Virus record (IMG/VR): IMGVR_UViG_3300027969_003844
Coordinates: 1 to 64,000 of that record
Direction: 5' to 3' (one strand)
Source of the DNA: a virus
Length of the DNA stretch: 64,000 nucleotides
Of this stretch, positions 3,366-62,681 are shown one piece after another. Below the pieces are notes generated by a model, which was not told the origin of the DNA, searched no databases, and worked only from the letters and a program-made list of their open reading frames with translations. Position 1 is the stretch's first letter. Each line of letters begins with the position of its first letter. The position numbers and the translations under genes are program-made.

Positions 3366-3665
3366 ATGAAAACTATCGAAACTACAATTTACACTCGCCC
3401 AGAAGTTGACGAAGGCGAAATGTTAAAGCCTTGGTGGCAACCAAATGAAGACCAGCGCAAGGCATTGCGTCAAAATAACGTAGCAATTGCTCGTACAGGC
3501 ACAAGCCCAACAACTCAACTTGAAGTAATTTATTTTAATACTGAAAAGGCCATGGACACATGGAAAGCCAAAGCTGAAGTTCAAGCAGTGGCTGCCGCTC
3601 GTGATGCATATAATGCTGCCAATGGCATCACTGCGTCTGCTACTTCAATTGCAACAACAGCGTAA
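3366..3665 (+). CDS. small protein with YTRP...WW...YNxAxGIT motifs (paralog 2)
   Basis: AAGGAG RBS; motifs shared with 2880-3206. Confidence 0.75.
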   Translation: MKTIETTIYTRPEVDEGEMLKPWWQPNEDQRKALRQNNVAIARTGTSPTTQLEVIYFNTEKAMDTWKAKAEVQAVAAARDAYNAANGITASATSIATTA

Positions 3666-3693
3666 TTGGTATATTAATAGGTTGGCTCCGGCA

Positions 3694-4548
3694 ATGAGCA
3701 TCAGAGTATTAAAAGAATTAAAAAGTGTTAATTCCAATAGTAAAAAACTAGTGTTTGCACTGCAAGATGACACTCAAATAGAAAGTGTCATCTTGCCACA
3801 TCCGTTTGATGAATCATTGTTTGGTATTTGTGTAAGTGTGCAGGTAGGGTGTGCAGTTGGTTGTACATTTTGCCAAACAGGTAAAGATGGGCTAACCCGC
3901 AATCTTTCGTCAGACGAAATAATTTATCAATTTGAATTTGCACAACAGCAACAGTATCCAAAAAATATAAGAACTGTAGTTTTTATGGGCATGGGAGATT
4001 CTGCTCATAATATTGATAATGTACTAACGGCTGTTGACGAATTTGCCAACAGAGGCCTGGATCCAAATAACATTATTGTTAGCTCAGTTGGTACACCCAA
4101 GTTTTTTGATAAACTAGAATCATCAGCGGTCAAACCTCGACTGGCCATTAGTCTACATTCTGCTGTGGATGCCACTAGAAAATCTATTATTCCAATGAGT
4201 AATTTAATGCCGATTAAAGATTTAATTAAACGTGCAACTGATTATGCCAGGATAGATAGGACTGTAATGTTCCAATGGACCTTATTGGCCGGCATTAATG
4301 ATTCAGAATCTGAAATTGATGCCCTGGTAAACTTGCTAGCACCATTCAAAGATCGTGCTGTTATACAAATAATTCCCTGGAATTACGTTGAAGGAACACC
4401 ACATACCCCATCTCCAGAATTTAGAATATTAGAAATACTTGATATTCTTGGTAAGTTAGGATTTCAACATTCCAGAAGATATTCACATGGCAAAGATATT
4501 GGCGCGGCATGCGGACAATTATCTAAATTATCTAAAAATACAATTTAA
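3694..4548 (+). CDS. RlmN/Cfr-family radical SAM methyltransferase, N-terminally short
   Basis: IESV, CVSVQVGCAVGCTFC, VFMGMGD, LAISLHS, DIGAACGQL; start moved from 3601 to ATG 3694. Confidence 0.85.
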   Translation: MSIRVLKELKSVNSNSKKLVFALQDDTQIESVILPHPFDESLFGICVSVQVGCAVGCTFCQTGKDGLTRNLSSDEIIYQFEFAQQQQYPKNIRTVVFMGMGDSAHNIDNVLTAVDEFANRGLDPNNIIVSSVGTPKFFDKLESSAVKPRLAISLHSAVDATRKSIIPMSNLMPIKDLIKRATDYARIDRTVMFQWTLLAGINDSESEIDALVNLLAPFKDRAVIQIIPWNYVEGTPHTPSPEFRILEILDILGKLGFQHSRRYSHGKDIGAACGQLSKLSKNTI

Positions 4549-4563
4549 TTTAGACCCAAATTA

Positions 4564-4590
4564 AAAATAGGCCTTAAAGGCCTATTTTTT
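4564..4590. terminator. bidirectional intrinsic terminator
   Basis: aaaataggcc-ttaaa-ggcctatttt between convergent genes. Confidence 0.8.
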
Positions 4591-4990
4591 ATCGTCCAAT
4601 ACCTTGTCGGTATGCTTCTTGTTCTCTACGTCGTTGTTCTTCTAAATAACGTTGACGTGCGCCACGTTGACAAGCTTCGCGTTCACGATAGGTTGGATAT
4701 GAATTGCACACTGGACTAACAATGACCACACGCTCATGACTTAGTGCAGGCTCGCGAACCACTACAGTTCTACCTCCGCTTTGTTGTGCATCCATGCTGG
4801 CACCAACATTGCTACCAATTGCGGCACCAGCCATTGCACCAACACCTGTGGCCAGTACGCCACCAACCGAGTGGCCCAAGATACCGCCAGCAACTGCACC
4901 AGTTACTGCACCTGCGTCACGATTGGTTGCACAACCTGTAAGTGAAAGGCCTGCTACAATTGCTGAAATTATTACAATATGTTTCATCAA
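4589..4990 (-). CDS. glycine-zipper 2TM lipoprotein
   Basis: lipobox LTGC followed by GxxxG repeats. Confidence 0.8.
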   Translation of the reverse strand: MMKHIVIISAIVAGLSLTGCATNRDAGAVTGAVAGGILGHSVGGVLATGVGAMAGAAIGSNVGASMDAQQSGGRTVVVREPALSHERVVIVSPVCNSYPTYREREACQRGARQRYLEEQRRREQEAYRQGIGR

Positions 4991-5074
4991 ATATTCTCCA
5001 CGTTTCTGTAAACAACTATAATATAGTGTATAACAAGATATTTGTCAAGTCATTATGGACAAATAGCATTAAAA

Positions 5075-5168
5075 TGCTCACTTTTGGGGTTCCGGTAGCG
5101 AATCGGATGGCCCAGGCCAGCAGCCGGCCCACACTTACGGTAACAAGTACCGGTCCTAAGGTGTGTTC
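5075..5168 (-). ncRNA. candidate structured ncRNA with several stems and a pseudoknot, family unassigned
   Basis: GC-rich island; stems CACAC/GUGUG, CGGUA/UACCG, GGCCG/UGGCC, UCCG/CGGA; loop UUCGCU can pair with downstream AGUGAG. Confidence 0.65.
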
Positions 5169-5171
5169 TTA

Positions 5172-5435
5172 TTATTCTTTTGCGGCAGTTTTCAGACCTA
5201 GTTCTAATTCCAAGTCTGGCAACTCCATGTAATTTACCTGATAAAAACCAGCGTCGTTAATTTCAACGGCATGAGCATATTCAGTTTCCAATAACTCTTG
5301 TGCAATAACACCAATCTCAGTTGTTGTTTTGCCTAGATAGTTATATGAATATACGTTAAATCCGGCAACCTGGCCAAGTAGTACGATATTTTCTTTTAAG
5401 CGTCGATCGCTAAATTTAATTGTTTTATTAGTCAT
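5172..5435 (-). CDS. stand-alone Peptidase_S74-like intramolecular chaperone domain
   Basis: SDRRLKENI...Y.Y...GVIAQEL...V.Y. Confidence 0.8.
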   Translation of the reverse strand: MTNKTIKFSDRRLKENIVLLGQVAGFNVYSYNYLGKTTTEIGVIAQELLETEYAHAVEINDAGFYQVNYMELPDLELELGLKTAAKE

Positions 5436-56606: not shown

Positions 56607-58067
56607 CTAAAATATTGAAATCTGATGCAGGTCTTGAAATTTTCTAGCATTTGCCCAGGTGTTGACCAAGGGCTCGCCCTTGATATTTAAACTGGTATTC
56701 ATTAATACTGGACACCCACTTGCATCATACCATCTCTCTAGCAATTGTCTGAATACAGGGTTATCAAGACCATTGACTGTCTGAACACGGCTACTGTTAT
56801 CAACATGGCACACTCCCGGTAATATATCTGGTACCTTGCATTGAGCAACAAACTGCATGTAAGGACTAGATACAATTGGCATATCAAAATAATCAGCGGC
56901 ATGTTCTTCTAAGATAGCAGGCGCAAACGGTCTAAATTGTTCGCGCTTTTTAATAGTATTCATTCTTGGCTTGGCTTCTTTGCCTCTAGGATCACATAAT
57001 AAACTACGATTGCCTAGTGCCCGTGGCCCAAACTCTGCACGACCATTTGCCACTGCCACCACTTCGCCTGCTAGAAGCTTTTTAACAATACCATCAATGT
57101 CTAATTCTCTATCAATGTTTGTACCCAGATATGGATGTTCCCATTTTAAATGTTGACCAGTATAAGCAGCCACGGCGCCAATTGCACTGCCAGCATCTCC
57201 GGGATTTGGCATTATCCATACATTATTGAATACCTTAGATTTTGCAATCCTACTGTTGGCAACACAATTAAGTGCAACACCGCCCATGAATACTAAATTT
57301 TCACTTGTGGTGTTCATACGCATGTTAATAACAGTTTCCATCAGGTAGTCTTCAACAATGCTTTGTACACATGCGGCAATGGTGAACTTATCAGCAGTCA
57401 CAGGAGGCTTCCACCACAAACAGCCCCTGTGCAAATTGTGTCTTAACTTAAACTTGGGTGCTGAAAATTCAATGAAGAATTCTTTTAATATTTCAGATTT
57501 TAGCAATTGATCAACATGTCCGTATGCTGCCATGCCCATAAGAATATATTCTTCCTCATTGGGTTTGAGTCCCAGGTACTGAGTAAATGCAGAATAAAAT
57601 AGGCCAATGCTGTCAGGATAACGCTTGCGCCATTTAGATTTTATCTTGTGGCCATGTCCTTCCCAAATGCTAACACTATCCCATTCTCCAATTGCATCAA
57701 CAACTAAGATCGCGGCGTTATCAAAGCCACTGGTATAATATCCTGCGGCTGCATGACTTTTATGGTGTTTACCATAATGCAAAGGTATGTTGTTAAGGCC
57801 AACACGTTTTAATTCTTCTTTGGCACTTTCGTAATACGGACGCTGACCAGCATAAAGATTACGTGTACTTTTTAGTAATGGGCTTTCGAACCAGACAATG
57901 TCAGTGGGAGTACCATAATCAAACATTTCCTGTACCATGTCATAATTTAAAACACGGTCATTTTTATTTCTGCTGTACCGCTCTGCATGTCCAGCCCATA
58001 CTATACGATTTCCGTTGATAAGAGCTAAACTGGCATCGTGATTTAATCCTGTTGCTCCTAGAATCAT
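56607..58067 (-). CDS. carbamoyltransferase (NodU/CmcH family)
   Basis: HDAS, ERYSR.K, HH.SHAA, DAIGE, GGVALNC, EFGPRALG.RS, RE.FRPFAP, NTSLN. Confidence 0.92.
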   Translation of the reverse strand: MILGATGLNHDASLALINGNRIVWAGHAERYSRNKNDRVLNYDMVQEMFDYGTPTDIVWFESPLLKSTRNLYAGQRPYYESAKEELKRVGLNNIPLHYGKHHKSHAAAGYYTSGFDNAAILVVDAIGEWDSVSIWEGHGHKIKSKWRKRYPDSIGLFYSAFTQYLGLKPNEEEYILMGMAAYGHVDQLLKSEILKEFFIEFSAPKFKLRHNLHRGCLWWKPPVTADKFTIAACVQSIVEDYLMETVINMRMNTTSENLVFMGGVALNCVANSRIAKSKVFNNVWIMPNPGDAGSAIGAVAAYTGQHLKWEHPYLGTNIDRELDIDGIVKKLLAGEVVAVANGRAEFGPRALGNRSLLCDPRGKEAKPRMNTIKKREQFRPFAPAILEEHAADYFDMPIVSSPYMQFVAQCKVPDILPGVCHVDNSSRVQTVNGLDNPVFRQLLERWYDASGCPVLMNTSLNIKGEPLVNTWANARKFQDLHQISIF

Positions 58068-58068
58068 G

Positions 58069-60141
58069 TTAAACTCTTTTCCATTTGCTTATTGAAATGT
58101 CTGCTCCGCAATGGCATCGTAGGCTATTGCAAATAACAGGATTAGATAATGTATTCCAATTAAGCTGGTCAAAATCCTTGACTGTTCCAATTACACCACC
58201 CACATCACAATTGCCTCGTTTGATATGACCATTTTGATGAATGAACAGACTCTCTACACCAATGTTACAATTAAAATCGTAAAAGTTTGTTTGTCCTCTG
58301 TTAATTAATTCTTGTTCATTGTCAATGATTGCACGACTGCCATCACTGAATGTAGCAGTTGGGCTCCATGGTGGGAATGGACGATATATTGGATTAGTAA
58401 CAGAAATATTGTCAGGCGATGACCGTGTTTCGACTTGCTTAAAATTCTTGAAGAATTGATTTTGTTCTTCAGAATAATTAATTTTGGCCAACTTGGTTCT
58501 AGAACTACCGTATTGATCGTCGATATAAACTAGTTCAATTCTAGCAGTTGTAGTTTTCTTTGCTTGGTCGATAAACTCTAATGTTTCTTCCCAGTACAGT
58601 GGATCCATCATTATACGCAATGACACCATGGTTTGCATTGTGGCAATACGTATGCGATCTAAATAATCTTTGGCTGTGCCATTGGCAAATTCTTGTGCAG
58701 GATGAAAACTACATGCCGCATAGGTCAGATACTTAAAATTTTCTTTAATGAATCGAGGTGTTCTTGCCAGGTTAGTGGTAATGCCAACATTGCCACCCAA
58801 GCTATGTATCTTTTGAACCATTTGAGGGAAGAACGGGCTCATTGTTGGTTCCCCACCACTGAGTGAAAAATTAATGTACTTTCCATCCCAGTGCTCAAAC
58901 ATCTTATCCAAGAAAGGTTCAATTTGTTCCCAATTAAACAAATGATTCTTTCCATTATGCAAAGACGATGGACAATATCTACAAGAATAATTACAGATAT
59001 CGTTAAGAATCCAAGTTACTATCACACGCTGTTCATTTTTAACTCCAACAATTTTTTTCCCTTGTACTGGGATTGGAAACTTCCATTGTGGGATTCTTGC
59101 TCTGGGATTTTCAATGCTTGAGTACATTTGAATATCGTCAACAATTTCAACATCCTGAATACTTCTAAATTTATTTAAATTAATGGTAATGCCAGTCACT
59201 GGAGAATAGATTTTTTCAAGCTGAACATCAACCAATCGTCCAATGCCCATAAAACCATCTCTATTATCTGGGTTGCGCCACTGGTAATCTAAATGCTTGT
59301 CCTCATCAAGTTCTTTGAACTTTTTCCAGTCATTGGTCAATGTGTACGGATCATAGGAGTCGTGGATTAGATAGCATAGTATTTCATTAGACCAAGATTC
59401 TTGACGAGTAATAGAATTGTTATCAACTGCCACTCCATCCCCGTCGGCCACAACCCGGCTTAGATTTTTACCTTCTCCGTTGTAGCCCAGTACAAGATCA
59501 CCAAATCTTAAATGCGACATAAAACTGGCGGCATCTTCGTTGGTGATTTCAAAATCACGGCGTGGATTAAAACTAATTAATAAATTTGCTTCAGTTGACG
59601 ATGTTGTTTCAATTGTGGGCTTCTCATCCGACGCAGATGCTGCCAATGTTTCTGCAATGGTAATGGCATCATTTAGTTGATTAAATGTTGTGTGGAAGTC
59701 TTCGTTGAATGTAATACCTGGCCATTGTAATGCTTCTGGACTATCTGCAGGGATTCGTTGATACGCAGTATCCCACCATTTTTTAGATAACTTTTCTGCT
59801 ACTCTTCCTTGATACTCATCAAATTGTTTATACAAATAATCAATAGCAGCCTGGTCGTATTTTTTAAAAATTGTCAATGGCTTGTCATAGAAAAGATTAA
59901 TCTTACGAATGATGTTGGTCAGACGCTCTTCAAATGCCATGTCTTTGGTTAAAAGAGTACGAGTAAATTTAATACGTTTATCCCTGAAACTTTTTTCTCC
60001 AAATTTCATATCTTCCAGTAACTGGCACCATTTAGCAGACAGCTTGGTATTATACAATCTGTAATACAGATCATAACATTCCCAGTTTTCTGGATTTACC
60101 AATGTAATCCTAACATTTTTATTGTCAATAAACTTTCCCAT
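58069..60141 (-). CDS. fusion of an uncharacterised N-domain and a radical SAM domain
   Basis: CNYSCRYC, SGGEPT, C-terminal Cys cluster; GAGG RBS before ATG 60141. Confidence 0.85.
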   Translation of the reverse strand: MGKFIDNKNVRITLVNPENWECYDLYYRLYNTKLSAKWCQLLEDMKFGEKSFRDKRIKFTRTLLTKDMAFEERLTNIIRKINLFYDKPLTIFKKYDQAAIDYLYKQFDEYQGRVAEKLSKKWWDTAYQRIPADSPEALQWPGITFNEDFHTTFNQLNDAITIAETLAASASDEKPTIETTSSTEANLLISFNPRRDFEITNEDAASFMSHLRFGDLVLGYNGEGKNLSRVVADGDGVAVDNNSITRQESWSNEILCYLIHDSYDPYTLTNDWKKFKELDEDKHLDYQWRNPDNRDGFMGIGRLVDVQLEKIYSPVTGITINLNKFRSIQDVEIVDDIQMYSSIENPRARIPQWKFPIPVQGKKIVGVKNEQRVIVTWILNDICNYSCRYCPSSLHNGKNHLFNWEQIEPFLDKMFEHWDGKYINFSLSGGEPTMSPFFPQMVQKIHSLGGNVGITTNLARTPRFIKENFKYLTYAACSFHPAQEFANGTAKDYLDRIRIATMQTMVSLRIMMDPLYWEETLEFIDQAKKTTTARIELVYIDDQYGSSRTKLAKINYSEEQNQFFKNFKQVETRSSPDNISVTNPIYRPFPPWSPTATFSDGSRAIIDNEQELINRGQTNFYDFNCNIGVESLFIHQNGHIKRGNCDVGGVIGTVKDFDQLNWNTLSNPVICNSLRCHCGADISISKWKRV

Positions 60142-60157
60142 TTTAGCCTCTAAAATT

Positions 60158-61390
60158 TTATATATCAAGTAATTTTGTGTAGTCTGTGCCATGCAGGCGA
60201 TCAAGACCCTGTAGGTAATCCAGTGTTTGTGGGTACAAGTGACTCCAGTCTTCCGAATTCATAAATGTAATTAATCCAGCAAGTCTTTGCATTTGTACGT
60301 TCTTGGGATAACTTGCAAAATATGTTTCTAGTTTTTCCGTTACACGTTTTTTCATTTCTATTGGCAATACCTTGACACAAAGATATTGTGGCCAATGCAA
60401 TGTACCTGGATAGAATATGCCACCAATATTACTTTTACGAACCTTGTCAAGATTTAGGTTTAATAACCATTCGGACATTTCTGGCAACCAATTTATATTC
60501 AATGCTTGAACAGTGCATAACACTTTGACAATGATATTGTCTGGAGTGTCATTGTATAATTTTAAATTACGTTCAACCACTTCCCACTTGGCCGGACGAC
60601 GAATGTAATCATTGACCCAATCGTAACCATCAATACTGAGCATTAGTTCTACTTGCTTAAAGCTTTTCCAAAGCTCAACAATTTCTGGATTGTGTATAGT
60701 ACAATTGGTATGGTAACGAAGTGTGATATTTTTAGCTAAATCACGTGCAACCAACTGTTCGATGATTGACTTGTGTTCTTTGATGTACAGTGGTTCGCCA
60801 CCACCAAAAATAATGTGTTGTATAGAGCTTGCATTTTCAAAGAAATCATCCCAAAATACTGGATCTTTATACCACTCAAACTGTTCGGCGGCATAGTTTT
60901 CAATTTTATATTTCCACTCATGTCTTGCGTCAGTTTCTAATGTTTCACTGAGTGTTTTTGCGTCCTTGACCCATTTGCTCGAGTCCTGTGGCCGACACAT
61001 TACACATTGTAGATTACATGTATTACCAAGTCGTAAATCTAGTGTAATCAAATCATGATCAACACGACCATTGCGGCGTGTACTATCAACTAGACCATCT
61101 AGGTACTCTGCATCCAAGTGCTTGTACCAGTATTGATTTTCGTTTTGCCTGTGACTTTTGATACCAGCAGATTCTTCTTTGTAACAAGTGGTACATGCAG
61201 GGAACTCACGTCCATTTAGCATTGCCAGTCTGGCTTCTGCAAAATGACTACTGTTCCAAATCTGTGACCAATTTGATTTATTTAGATTTAAGTTTGAGGC
61301 CTTGGCCACACAACATAACAATGCTGTACCATCATTATAAGTTGCCGCATGTATCCAAGGTAGAATACAAAAAGTTTTAGATTTATCCAT
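60158..61390 (-). CDS. radical SAM protein with N-terminal SPASM/twitch-like domain
   Basis: FCILPW..CC..C..C; CNLQCVMC; GGEP. Confidence 0.88.
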   Translation of the reverse strand: MDKSKTFCILPWIHAATYNDGTALLCCVAKASNLNLNKSNWSQIWNSSHFAEARLAMLNGREFPACTTCYKEESAGIKSHRQNENQYWYKHLDAEYLDGLVDSTRRNGRVDHDLITLDLRLGNTCNLQCVMCRPQDSSKWVKDAKTLSETLETDARHEWKYKIENYAAEQFEWYKDPVFWDDFFENASSIQHIIFGGGEPLYIKEHKSIIEQLVARDLAKNITLRYHTNCTIHNPEIVELWKSFKQVELMLSIDGYDWVNDYIRRPAKWEVVERNLKLYNDTPDNIIVKVLCTVQALNINWLPEMSEWLLNLNLDKVRKSNIGGIFYPGTLHWPQYLCVKVLPIEMKKRVTEKLETYFASYPKNVQMQRLAGLITFMNSEDWSHLYPQTLDYLQGLDRLHGTDYTKLLDI

Positions 61391-62681
61391 TGATCAATTC
61401 TGCTATTCTGCTATCAAGTACTGTGACATCTTGTTCCCTGCTTTTGTCCAGGCTTTTTGTATATGTGCGTAAACGTTGCAATTGTTCTTCCCAGTCATCG
61501 GCTCTTGGTTGTTGTAATAGACCAATTATACCATTAACACTATTACGGGTTAATTCATGTACATTCTTAGGCATCTGATTGTCTCGATAATCCATTAGTA
61601 ATTGACACGCTTTGGCTTTAAGATCGTCAGGTAATATGTTTACATTGAGATGATAAGGATGATAATTTATAAGCAGGTCAACAAAAATATCTTTATTGTG
61701 TTTTTTGTTGAGCTCGTCTACCCATAACAACGTTTCAACTAGATTAAAAACATTATAAACCTGCACCGTTGGAGTCACACCTAATTTGACATTTGATAGC
61801 TCTGCAATCTTCTCTACGTTTGCACTCAACTGACTCCACTTACTTGGCGCACGAATGTAATCATTTACAGCACCAATTCCGTCTAAGCTGGCATTAATAT
61901 TAATTTCATCAAATTGACTGATAATATCAAGAAACTTTTTATTAACGTTGGTACAGTTTGTATTAAAAAATAATAAAATATCTTTGCGACCTTGGTCAAT
62001 ACAAGATTGCATAAATTTAAAATTGTTGCCAATAAGTGTTGGCTCGCCTCCGGTCATATAGACTTTCTTTAATTCTGGAATTAATGCGATAATCTGGTCC
62101 CATAACACATCGCTTTCAAACCATTCCTGTTGATCCATGACTGATATAGGAAACTTTCCAAATGCTTTACGCCAAACTTGTCCGTATGCTGGGTCTGTTT
62201 CTGTAAGCTCTAAGTGTTCCTTGGCAATCTGACTAGAATTCCATGGGTTGCACATTCTACATTTGAGATTGCACAAGTTGCCTAATCGCAAATCCAAATA
62301 CACCAAATCAGAATTAACTACGCCACCGTGTATTTTTGCATAACGAACACGTTTGGCCAATTCTTCTTCGCCTAATCTCCAGGCCCATTCATTGTTTGCA
62401 TGTATTCTATTACTGTCTCGACCCGAATCTTCTTGAAGATAACAGACTTTACAACCTTCAATGTTATCACCATTGATCATTGCAGTACGAATATCACGCA
62501 TGTCTTGTCCGTTCCATGCATGTTCAATAAACTGATCCTGGATAGTAAAGAATTTACCATCCTCTTTTTTAAGTTTGTTGGCCGCGCCTTTCACCATGCA
62601 ACAATACCGTACAGTTGCATCTGTATTGACCATTAGGCTAACAAAAGGAATAGCGCAAAACGTTTTTGAAATTGGTTTCAT
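61383..62681 (-). CDS. radical SAM protein with N-terminal SPASM/twitch-like domain
   Basis: FCAIPF..CC..C..C; CNLKCRMC; GGEPT. Confidence 0.88.
   Translation of the reverse strand: MKPISKTFCAIPFVSLMVNTDATVRYCCMVKGAANKLKKEDGKFFTIQDQFIEHAWNGQDMRDIRTAMINGDNIEGCKVCYLQEDSGRDSNRIHANNEWAWRLGEEELAKRVRYAKIHGGVVNSDLVYLDLRLGNLCNLKCRMCNPWNSSQIAKEHLELTETDPAYGQVWRKAFGKFPISVMDQQEWFESDVLWDQIIALIPELKKVYMTGGEPTLIGNNFKFMQSCIDQGRKDILLFFNTNCTNVNKKFLDIISQFDEININASLDGIGAVNDYIRAPSKWSQLSANVEKIAELSNVKLGVTPTVQVYNVFNLVETLLWVDELNKKHNKDIFVDLLINYHPYHLNVNILPDDLKAKACQLLMDYRDNQMPKNVHELTRNSVNGIIGLLQQPRADDWEEQLQRLRTYTKSLDKSREQDVTVLDSRIAELING

Follow-up and report, generated by a model that had tools for sequence, protein, structure and literature searches.

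What does a short GC-rich stretch encode when it begins directly after a stop codon in an uncultured phage and belongs to no convincing gene? The question is raised by the minus strand of positions 5165-5075 in the window, by which we mean the whole 64,000-nt stretch of DNA analyzed here (positions 1 to 64,000 of the 105-kb IMG/VR virus record IMGVR_UViG_3300027969_003844). These 91 nt have a GC content of 0.59-0.63 against a record mean of 0.39, and of the 13 GC islands in the record only this one and one tRNA lie outside a convincing open reading frame (ORF). The original prediction, made from the letters of the window, had pointed to this GC richness and proposed a structured RNA with a pseudoknot, acting as a small RNA, a ribozyme-like element or a 3' regulatory element. 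Comparison with relatives reveals that the stretch almost certainly belongs to a real structured RNA family, apparently undescribed, whose only long invariant unpaired segments are complementary to two abutting pieces of 23S rRNA. The best overall explanation, which we offer tentatively from sequence comparison, is a single-copy phage RNA that would act in trans, perhaps by docking on large-subunit rRNA.

A family of single-copy elements in large phages

Relatives were collected by baiting IMG/VR with two short strings taken from the unpaired invariant parts of the element, each of which fetched at least 120 stretches. BLAST aligned copies at 72-89% identity over ~100 nt at more than 150 loci with unrelated flanks, and conservation ends at the edges of this ~100-nt element. 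A covariance model (R1), built from 99 distinct copies (alignment A1), matches IMG/VR loci in sets of at least 89, at least 67 and at least 31, with one copy in each locus and scores of 20-121 bits, giving a family of at least 187 IMG/VR loci in which the element measures about 90-110 nt. The full match in the window, which takes in the element and short flanks, runs from 5068 to 5178 on the minus strand (121.8 bits, E 2.8e-33) and is the single match in the 105-kb record.

The carriers are uncultured phages of about 200-350 kb in which the element is single-copy. The model matches once per record in five records of 210-349 kb, one of them a complete 347-kb genome that has terminal repeats, and a T4-type gp23 capsid gene (E about 1e-97) was found in four of the five large records tested. 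A 25-base gapped pattern, searched in one genome per species across 185,579 prokaryote species, gave a single match, on the 183-kb contig NZ_JBBAKG010000001.1 (locus L239) of a metagenome-assembled genome (MAG) labelled 'Haliscomenobacter sp.' The element lies there between a 384-aa ORF and a gene for a DsbA-like 86-aa protein, which is followed by a 933-aa family-B DNA polymerase. Since these two genes adjoin the element, the contig looks like that of a T4-like phage, and we think that it is a phage genome mis-binned into a bacterial MAG; as a clue to the host, the label is at best a weak hint.

Other routes to the family gave nothing. Megablast and blastn searches of 50,697 deposited phage genomes found no match with the window copy and an AT-rich relative as queries, although blastn at the E-value used would overlook relatives whose identity is under roughly 70%. 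A 22-mer of P3, searched for exactly, had no match in IMG/VR because P3 is variable, and the IMG/VR relatives of the proteins on either side (L002-L007) are without the element, so synteny offers no route to family members.

The fold and its covariation

The fold consists of a helix, P1, that encloses an invariant 8-nt bulge and a variable hairpin, P2, followed by the hairpins P3 and P4 and a 3' tail. The 7-nt loop of P3 and the tail form an H-type pseudoknot, with P4 inside the pseudoknot loop and an A-rich run before the tail strand. In the window copy, all on the minus strand, P1 pairs CACAC (5161-5165) with GUGUG (5134-5130), and in relatives the same helix appears as ACACC/GGUGU, ACCC/GGGU, GGCC/GGCU and ACGC/GCGU. 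The bulge between P1 and P2 (J1/2), CUUAGGAC, occupies 5153-5160, and the following C (5152) opens P2, a CGGUA/UACCG hairpin with a CUUGU loop (5138-5152; strands 5152-5148 and 5142-5138). Four of its five pairs show compensatory changes; its length is variable, and the hairpin is missing in one subfamily (L027, L100, L120). P3 (5115-5129) has a GGCC/GGCC stem (5129-5126 and 5118-5115) and the loop L3, GGCUGCU (5125-5119), with compensatory changes in all four stem pairs and 97.9% of alignment cells paired. P4 (5086-5113) is built from an outer GGG/CCC stem (5113-5111 and 5088-5086) and an inner UCCG/CGGA stem (5107-5104 and 5094-5091), with compensatory changes in all seven stem pairs, and is capped by the 9-nt loop L4, AUUCGCUAC (5095-5103), which is invariant in most members. 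All of the helices listed in the original prediction, namely CACAC/GUGUG, CGGUA/UACCG, the GGCC hairpin and GGG..UCCG/CGGA..CCC, are present where it had placed them.

The pseudoknot exists too, with a partner other than the one first proposed. The 3' tail AAAAGUGAGCA (5075-5085, minus strand) pairs its AGC (5078-5076) with GCU of L3 (5124-5122), and its AGU (5082-5080) is able to pair with the second L3 GCU (5121-5119) if G5079 is bulged, so that the majority pairing in the family is GCU-GCU of L3 with AGU[G]AGC of the tail. The two strands vary together: L3 and tail read GCCGUU and AACGGC in the L046 group, GCCAUU and AAUGGC in L084, CCGUU and AACGG in L113, GCCCC and GGGGC in L078, GCCAC and GUGGC in L132, GUUAC and GUAAC in L158, and GGU and ACC in L059, while a further variant, GCUAC with GUAGC, carries an inserted U. 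This makes at least six distinct complementary sequence pairs, with compensatory changes in three of the five pseudoknot pairs counted; because these pairs are absent from the covariance model, the fit to the model cannot have created them. The pairing proposed earlier, between UUCGCU of the P4 loop and AGUGAG at the 3' end, is possible on paper; it shows no compensatory change and is lost when the tail changes. A second candidate, pairing a UAGUG at the junction with CGCUA in L4, was rejected as it is not conserved, the junction being UAA, AAA, AUA or absent in other copies.

Across the whole structure, 90.5% of cells are paired on alignment A1 and 92.1% on a more diverse model alignment, A2. 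On A2, both-sided changes occur in 22 of 26 pairs, the observed covariation score was reached by none of 500 shuffles, and sliding the partners by 1-3 columns lowers it 5- to 10-fold. A2 was fitted to the nested helices and so favors them, and A1, which was not fitted, gives the same picture. Furthermore, RNAalifold on a plain MAFFT alignment recovers P3 and P4 with compensatory changes in nine of 11 pairs. The single-sequence fold is no better than that of shuffled sequences (z -0.9, with 36 of 200 shuffles folding as well; z -1.1 for the other strand), and the evidence for structure is comparative, consisting of the covariation of P1 to P4 and of the pseudoknot between the P3 loop and the tail. 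Covariation among homologs, on which the original prediction had let its case depend, is present, and its idea of a small structured phage RNA is strongly supported by a conserved, covarying, single-copy family.

A coding reading was rejected as well. The open frame continues past the double stop in front of the element, but insertions and deletions among relatives have lengths that are not divisible by three, and the base changes leave the pairing intact.

Strand, genomic context and mode of action

The element is co-oriented with both neighboring genes in essentially all loci. Where an upstream ORF of at least 80 aa lies on the same strand, it ends 4-14 nt before CUUAGGACC, the invariant segment at the P1-P2 bulge that includes CUUAGGAC, in 66 of 68 copies and with no frame preference; the stop codon therefore touches or overlaps P1. 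In the window, the UAA stop (5174-5172) of an 87-aa Peptidase_S74-domain ORF (5172-5435, minus strand) is followed directly by a second in-frame UAA (5169-5171), and the element begins at 5165, just after a stop codon as had been noticed at the outset.

The base pairs also bear on the strand. G-U pairs outnumber A-C pairs by 68 to 34 when one register-ambiguous position of P1 is left out, and the pseudoknot contains G-U pairs in several subfamilies that would be A-C mismatches on the opposite strand. Including the ambiguous P1 pair brings the two counts to about even, which counts against the assignment. Taken together, the functional RNA is very probably that of the coding strand, the minus strand of the window.

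The genes on either side are diverse, falling into 30 clusters upstream and 37 clusters downstream, and include cytidine deaminase, fatty-acid desaturase, radical SAM enzymes and an endonuclease, with a family-B DNA polymerase next to some copies. The commonest downstream neighbor is the DsbA-like 86-aa protein (phrog_12534 / phrog_639, with a weak match to Pfam Phage_DsbA), which lies 56-82 nt downstream in 20 of ~95 copies (L195, L184, L201, L104, L168 and about 15 others) and has a strong sigma-70-type promoter of its own. Promoter-like signals cluster behind the element: in the 60 nt scanned, boxes resembling the late promoter ATAAATA follow it at 39 of 140 loci and precede it at seven of 135, and hexamers resembling the sigma-70 -10 box lie downstream at 66 loci and upstream at 13. 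A run of at least five T stands just after the tail in 29 of 140 copies, and a separate canonical terminator follows the element in a few (L212, L143, L067).

Being on the coding strand, with a stop codon directly in front of it and usually a promoter next behind it, the element would be transcribed as the 3' end of the upstream message. With its single copy and changing neighbors it does not qualify as a general terminator, a repeat or a gene-specific leader, and we infer that it behaves like an RNA gene riding on whatever transcript lies upstream. With one copy per genome and unrelated neighboring genes, action in trans is, on balance, the more probable mode. Of the three roles first proposed, that of a gene-specific 3' regulatory element is disfavored by the same single copy and unrelated neighbors.

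Several familiar element classes were considered and rejected. A riboswitch or leader does not fit the 37 clusters of downstream genes or the promoter that in many copies separates the element from the gene behind it. A recoding signal does not fit the variable distance from the stop codon, the lack of a preferred frame, or insertions and deletions that are not multiples of three. A type III toxin-antitoxin RNA does not fit a single match per record with no nuclease consistently adjacent, and a repetitive or mobile intergenic element, such as a miniature inverted-repeat transposable element or a PeSL-like cassette, does not fit one copy in each of six records. A group II intron was set aside since conservation stops at the edges of the element and no Rfam intron model matches.

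Complementarity to 23S rRNA

Apart from the bulge and the P4 loop, no long unpaired segment is invariant in the family. The first, CUUAGGACC, is the exact complement of 23S rRNA 1921-1929, and the second, UUCGCUAC in the P4 loop, is the exact complement of 1930-1937; a check on rrlH of E. coli MG1655 places GGUCCUAAG at 1921-1929 and GUAGCGAA at 1930-1937. The two targets abut at G1929|G1930 to give 17 contiguous nt, read by an invariant core of 9 + 8 nt. For the window copy, complementarity to rrlH extends further, to 12 nt (1920-1931) and 9 nt (1929-1937). The first target runs from the 3' strand of helix 69 (H69) into helix 70 (H70), and the second is the single-stranded helix/loop 70. This part of the ribosome matters for subunit association and for contacts with tRNA and the ribosome recycling factor.

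The invariance of the two segments is not an artefact of the baits, because each was counted in sequences fetched with the other bait. Among the distinct sequences listed for the P4-loop bait, CTTAGGACC is exact in at least 52 and present as the one-base variant CCUAGGACC in at least one, and the best matches in the remainder, with 2-4 mismatches, are mostly chance catches of the bait. Among the distinct sequences fetched with the bulge bait, which number at least 97, ATTCGCTAC is exact in at least 70 and TATCGCTAC is found in at least nine more, so TCGCTAC is kept in at least 79.

A 12-nt antisense match to rRNA is in itself not rare, occurring in about 2% of shuffles. Composition-matched permutations brought the two segments to rRNA sites no more than 20 nt apart in 12 of 200,000 trials (about 6e-5), and an analytic estimate for exact abutment is about 4e-6. 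The phage's own 105 kb contains no target for the two loops. A full-length RNAduplex comparison with rRNA gives long spurious duplexes that 39 of 200 shuffles equal in score. Of 121 genomes from the phylum of the Haliscomenobacter-labelled MAG, Bacteroidota, 54 contain the exact 17-mer target, with 1-4 copies each, and the reversed control gave one match; the genomes that do not contain the 17-mer are presumably drafts without rRNA operons.

On this correspondence between invariant loops and abutting rRNA pieces rests the proposal that a small RNA of T4-like jumbo phages base-pairs with 23S rRNA 1921-1937 at the H69/H70 interface, a proposal that we regard as possible, if doubtful. The pseudoknotted scaffold would present the bulge and the P4 loop to large-subunit rRNA, in free 50S subunits or in assembly precursors, and the two separate loops would read one contiguous target. 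Docking at the interface could then affect how the subunits join, or whether factors or toxins reach H69 and H70. The toxin MazF-mt6 cuts at UUCCU (1939-1943), next to the target, in 50S and not in 70S particles, the helix/loop 70 being single-stranded (PMC5408214).

A number of points weigh against docking. The complementarity to rRNA was noticed after the fact. The segments stand in the reverse of the order of a plain antisense RNA, with the complement of the 5' half of the target coming first and that of the 3' half ~50 nt later. G1921-C1924 are base-paired in mature H69, and pairing over all 17 nt would be possible only after unfolding or in a precursor. The target is accessible for helix/loop 70 in free 50S subunits (PMC5408214) and not for the H69 strand. 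A hairpin loop of 9 nt does not easily form an 8-bp helix. In addition, the second guide is not universal, since the P4 loop takes alternative forms or is lost: GGAGUCGUGCC takes the place of GAUUCGCUACC in L017, L033, L071 and L096, a plain hairpin is found in L078, and the loop is deleted in L013 and L124. Finally, the gain to the phage from binding ribosomes is unclear, given that it needs working ribosomes itself.

Two further rRNA matches were observed. UCGUGC in the recurrent GGAGUCGUGCC is complementary to 23S 1964-1969 (GCACGA), ~30 nt from the main target, although a 6-mer carries no weight. Within P3 and L3, CGGCUGCUGGC (5115-5127, minus strand) is an 11-nt exact complement of 16S 517-527, in the 530-loop region, and thereby a second match to conserved rRNA within one 91-nt element; it is probably fortuitous, given that L3 varies together with the tail and differs between subfamilies.

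Alternative explanations

The main rival to docking is a fold made for a pocket, a ligand or catalysis, in which a trans-acting RNA uses its invariant bulge and loop as a tertiary pocket, a protein or ligand site or a catalytic core and the 23S match is coincidental. We hold this, too, to be possible, if doubtful. In its favor, aptamers and ribozymes typically combine variable stems with invariant junctions and loops, as this RNA does. The alternative P4 loops have a UCG core in common with the main one, in better agreement with a structural motif than with a guide, CUA of L4 could pair with UAG of J1/2, and a lone 12-nt antisense match has a p of about 0.02. Against it stands the low frequency, about 6e-5 of the permutations, of two segments complementary to neighboring rRNA pieces. 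Moreover, no protein gene is consistently adjacent, and the ribozyme and riboswitch models of Rfam gave no match even at E up to 10. This includes the self-cleaving ribozymes, whose Rfam models have no match in the whole window or, at E up to 10, in 4900-5400.

That the element works in cis, at the 3' end of the message, as an exonuclease-blocking stabilizer, a pseudoknot-assisted terminator or an insulator between transcription units, is unlikely. Its constant place between a stop codon, which it follows closely, and the next promoter, its strand and the T runs behind some copies are what such an element would show. One copy in genomes of up to 349 kb is, however, unfit for a general terminator or stabilizer, the upstream genes are unrelated, ~17 invariant unpaired bases would be superfluous for stability, and some copies are followed by a canonical terminator of their own. 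An intrinsic terminator was rejected on similar grounds: none is called at the window site (5060-5180), and most copies have no T run.

It is quite improbable that the functional RNA comes from the opposite strand, the plus strand of the window, where it would carry the rRNA-identical GGUCCUAAG and GUAGCGAA and serve as a decoy for an rRNA-directed enzyme or toxin. All helices form on the plus strand with similar energy, the register-ambiguous P1 pair is G-U there in 51 cases, and the plus strand of this copy also has GCCAGCAGCCG of 16S rRNA; toxins that cut helix/loop 70 and H69 exist (PMC5408214, PMC13189344). A weak promoter-like site at 5042-5069 on the plus strand would start transcription at the edge of the element, but it scores 9/12, which is chance level, and no promoter is conserved on that side, where the flanks are unrelated. 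In such a transcript the pseudoknot's G-U pairs, and the majority of those in P2 and P4, would become A-C mismatches, and the mimic would have its rRNA pieces in swapped order and end before the UUCCU cleavage motif.

That the element acts as DNA, in single-stranded or duplex form, is very improbable. It would then serve in replication or priming, as a site for packaging, or as a target, related to the rDNA site, for recombination or homing. The element is single-copy, its genome position differs between relatives, and the matched rDNA region is a known hot spot for homing endonucleases (the I-CeuI and I-CpaI sites). Duplex DNA sites, however, need no covariation of pairing or pseudoknot; the rDNA-like halves are ~50 bp apart and swapped, so no homing site is present, and neither endonuclease nor recombinase genes are constant neighbors.

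A decayed tRNA gene or tRNA-like relic, suggested by three consecutive hairpins, one with a 7-nt loop, by a relaxed ARAGORN call of 'tRNA-Gln(CUG)' at 5159-5083 and by six tRNAs elsewhere in the phage, is effectively refuted by the covariation-supported fold, since purifying selection and covariation indicate a different, pseudoknotted structure with G at position 33, C at 37 and no acceptor stem joining the ends, and the relaxed run makes three overlapping calls within 270 nt where the default run finds no gene in the window. The original prediction had likewise excluded a cloverleaf, and rightly, as P1 encloses P2 only.

Surroundings in the window

The 87-aa protein upstream of the element stands alone and consists of a Peptidase_S74 intramolecular-chaperone domain only (E 5e-09), without an attached tail-fibre or spike body; its nearest IMG/VR relative, at 53% identity, is the C-terminus of a longer ORF. 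Downstream on the same strand lies a gene for a glycine-zipper lipoprotein (4589-4990; Pfam Gly-zipper_Omp / Rick_17kDa_Anti, lipobox LTGC), preceded by a sigma-70-type promoter, TTGACA-17-TATATT (5020-5048, minus strand), with 11/12 consensus matches. The lipoprotein gene converges with a radical SAM gene at 3601-4548 on the plus strand.

Overlapping the pseudoknot tail, the window copy also has an AU-rich hairpin, AGCAU-UUUA-AUGCU followed by AUUUG (5065-5078, minus strand), which is not kept in relatives and did not come up in the terminator scan. The tail of this phage's copy could alternate between the pseudoknot and this weak, terminator-like hairpin. Further away, a Nol-like carbamoyltransferase gene and three radical SAM genes form a run at 56607-62681 (minus strand), and radical SAM genes are frequent neighbors of the RNA element in other phages too. 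The six tRNA genes of the phage (Arg-TCT, Leu-TAG, Ser-GCT, Ser-TGA, Ile-GAT and Cys-GCA) lie on the minus strand beyond the window, at 97728-105014 of the record.

Novelty and significance

Rfam 15 has no match at gathering thresholds anywhere in the window, and a search of 4900-5400 at E up to 10 gave only an 18-nt, 15-bit match to a microRNA model. A literature search found no paper that contains the motif or describes such an RNA. The closest catalogue is that of Fremin et al. 2023 (PMC10690425), which holds more than 10,000 unnamed candidate structured RNAs from IMG/VR and shares with the present family both the data source and the type of object, a covarying intergenic motif of uncultured phages. 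The family may be among these candidates; the text of the paper does not mention 23S, and its mentions of rRNA only concern a screen for overlap with predicted rRNA genes.

The family is abundant, under strong purifying selection and maintained, one copy per genome, in phages whose genomes include some of the largest among tailed phages. Were docking on 23S rRNA to be true, the RNA might control subunit joining or recycling during infection, or mask a site that is attacked by rRNA-cleaving defence toxins. It would offer phages an RNA-based route to manipulate or protect host ribosomes, beside the recently found phage proteins that bind ribosomes, and a natural scaffold for reading a bacterial rRNA sequence that is widely conserved. 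To our knowledge, no other phage RNA, as opposed to protein, targets the ribosome itself. Even without the link to rRNA, the family is well supported enough for structure determination and a search for partners, and conserved orphan RNAs have often led to new biochemistry.

Comparison with known systems

In group II introns the loops EBS2 and EBS1 (exon-binding sites) pair with a contiguous IBS2-IBS1 (intron-binding sites). The arrangement proposed for the phage RNA is alike in having two guides tens of nt apart in separate elements, one a bulge or internal loop and the other a terminal hairpin loop, which follow each other, from 5' to 3', in the order of the two halves of a single contiguous target. 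The likeness is in layout only. The phage RNA is ~95 nt long, with no domain V, catalytic core, reverse transcriptase or maturase and with flanks that are not conserved; its guides measure 9 + 8 nt against about 6 + 6 in the intron, and its proposed target is rRNA rather than an exon junction.

Structured RNAs of eukaryotic viruses also carry short invariant complements of rRNA near a stop codon or in a 3' region. Motif 1 of the calicivirus termination upstream ribosome-binding site (TURBS) complements 18S helix 26, and the 3' element of luteoviruses known as the barley yellow dwarf virus-like translation element (BTE) complements 18S rRNA as well. In contrast to the phage RNA, these elements address the small subunit through 5-6 nt and act in cis on a defined downstream ORF, whereas the 23S target would comprise 17 nt in two parts and the neighboring genes are not constant.

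Among phage- or defence-related RNAs, the ToxI-like pseudoknots are similarly small and without coding capacity. ToxI, however, is made of tandem 36-nt repeats next to the ToxN nuclease gene, while the phage RNA is a single-copy, unrepeated element of about 95 nt with no constant neighbor. With tRNAs, which the phage also carries, it shares three successive hairpins, a 7-nt loop and a UUCG-containing loop; it differs in having no acceptor stem, U33 or R37, a 9-nt 'T loop', and a 7-nt loop that is engaged in a pseudoknot.

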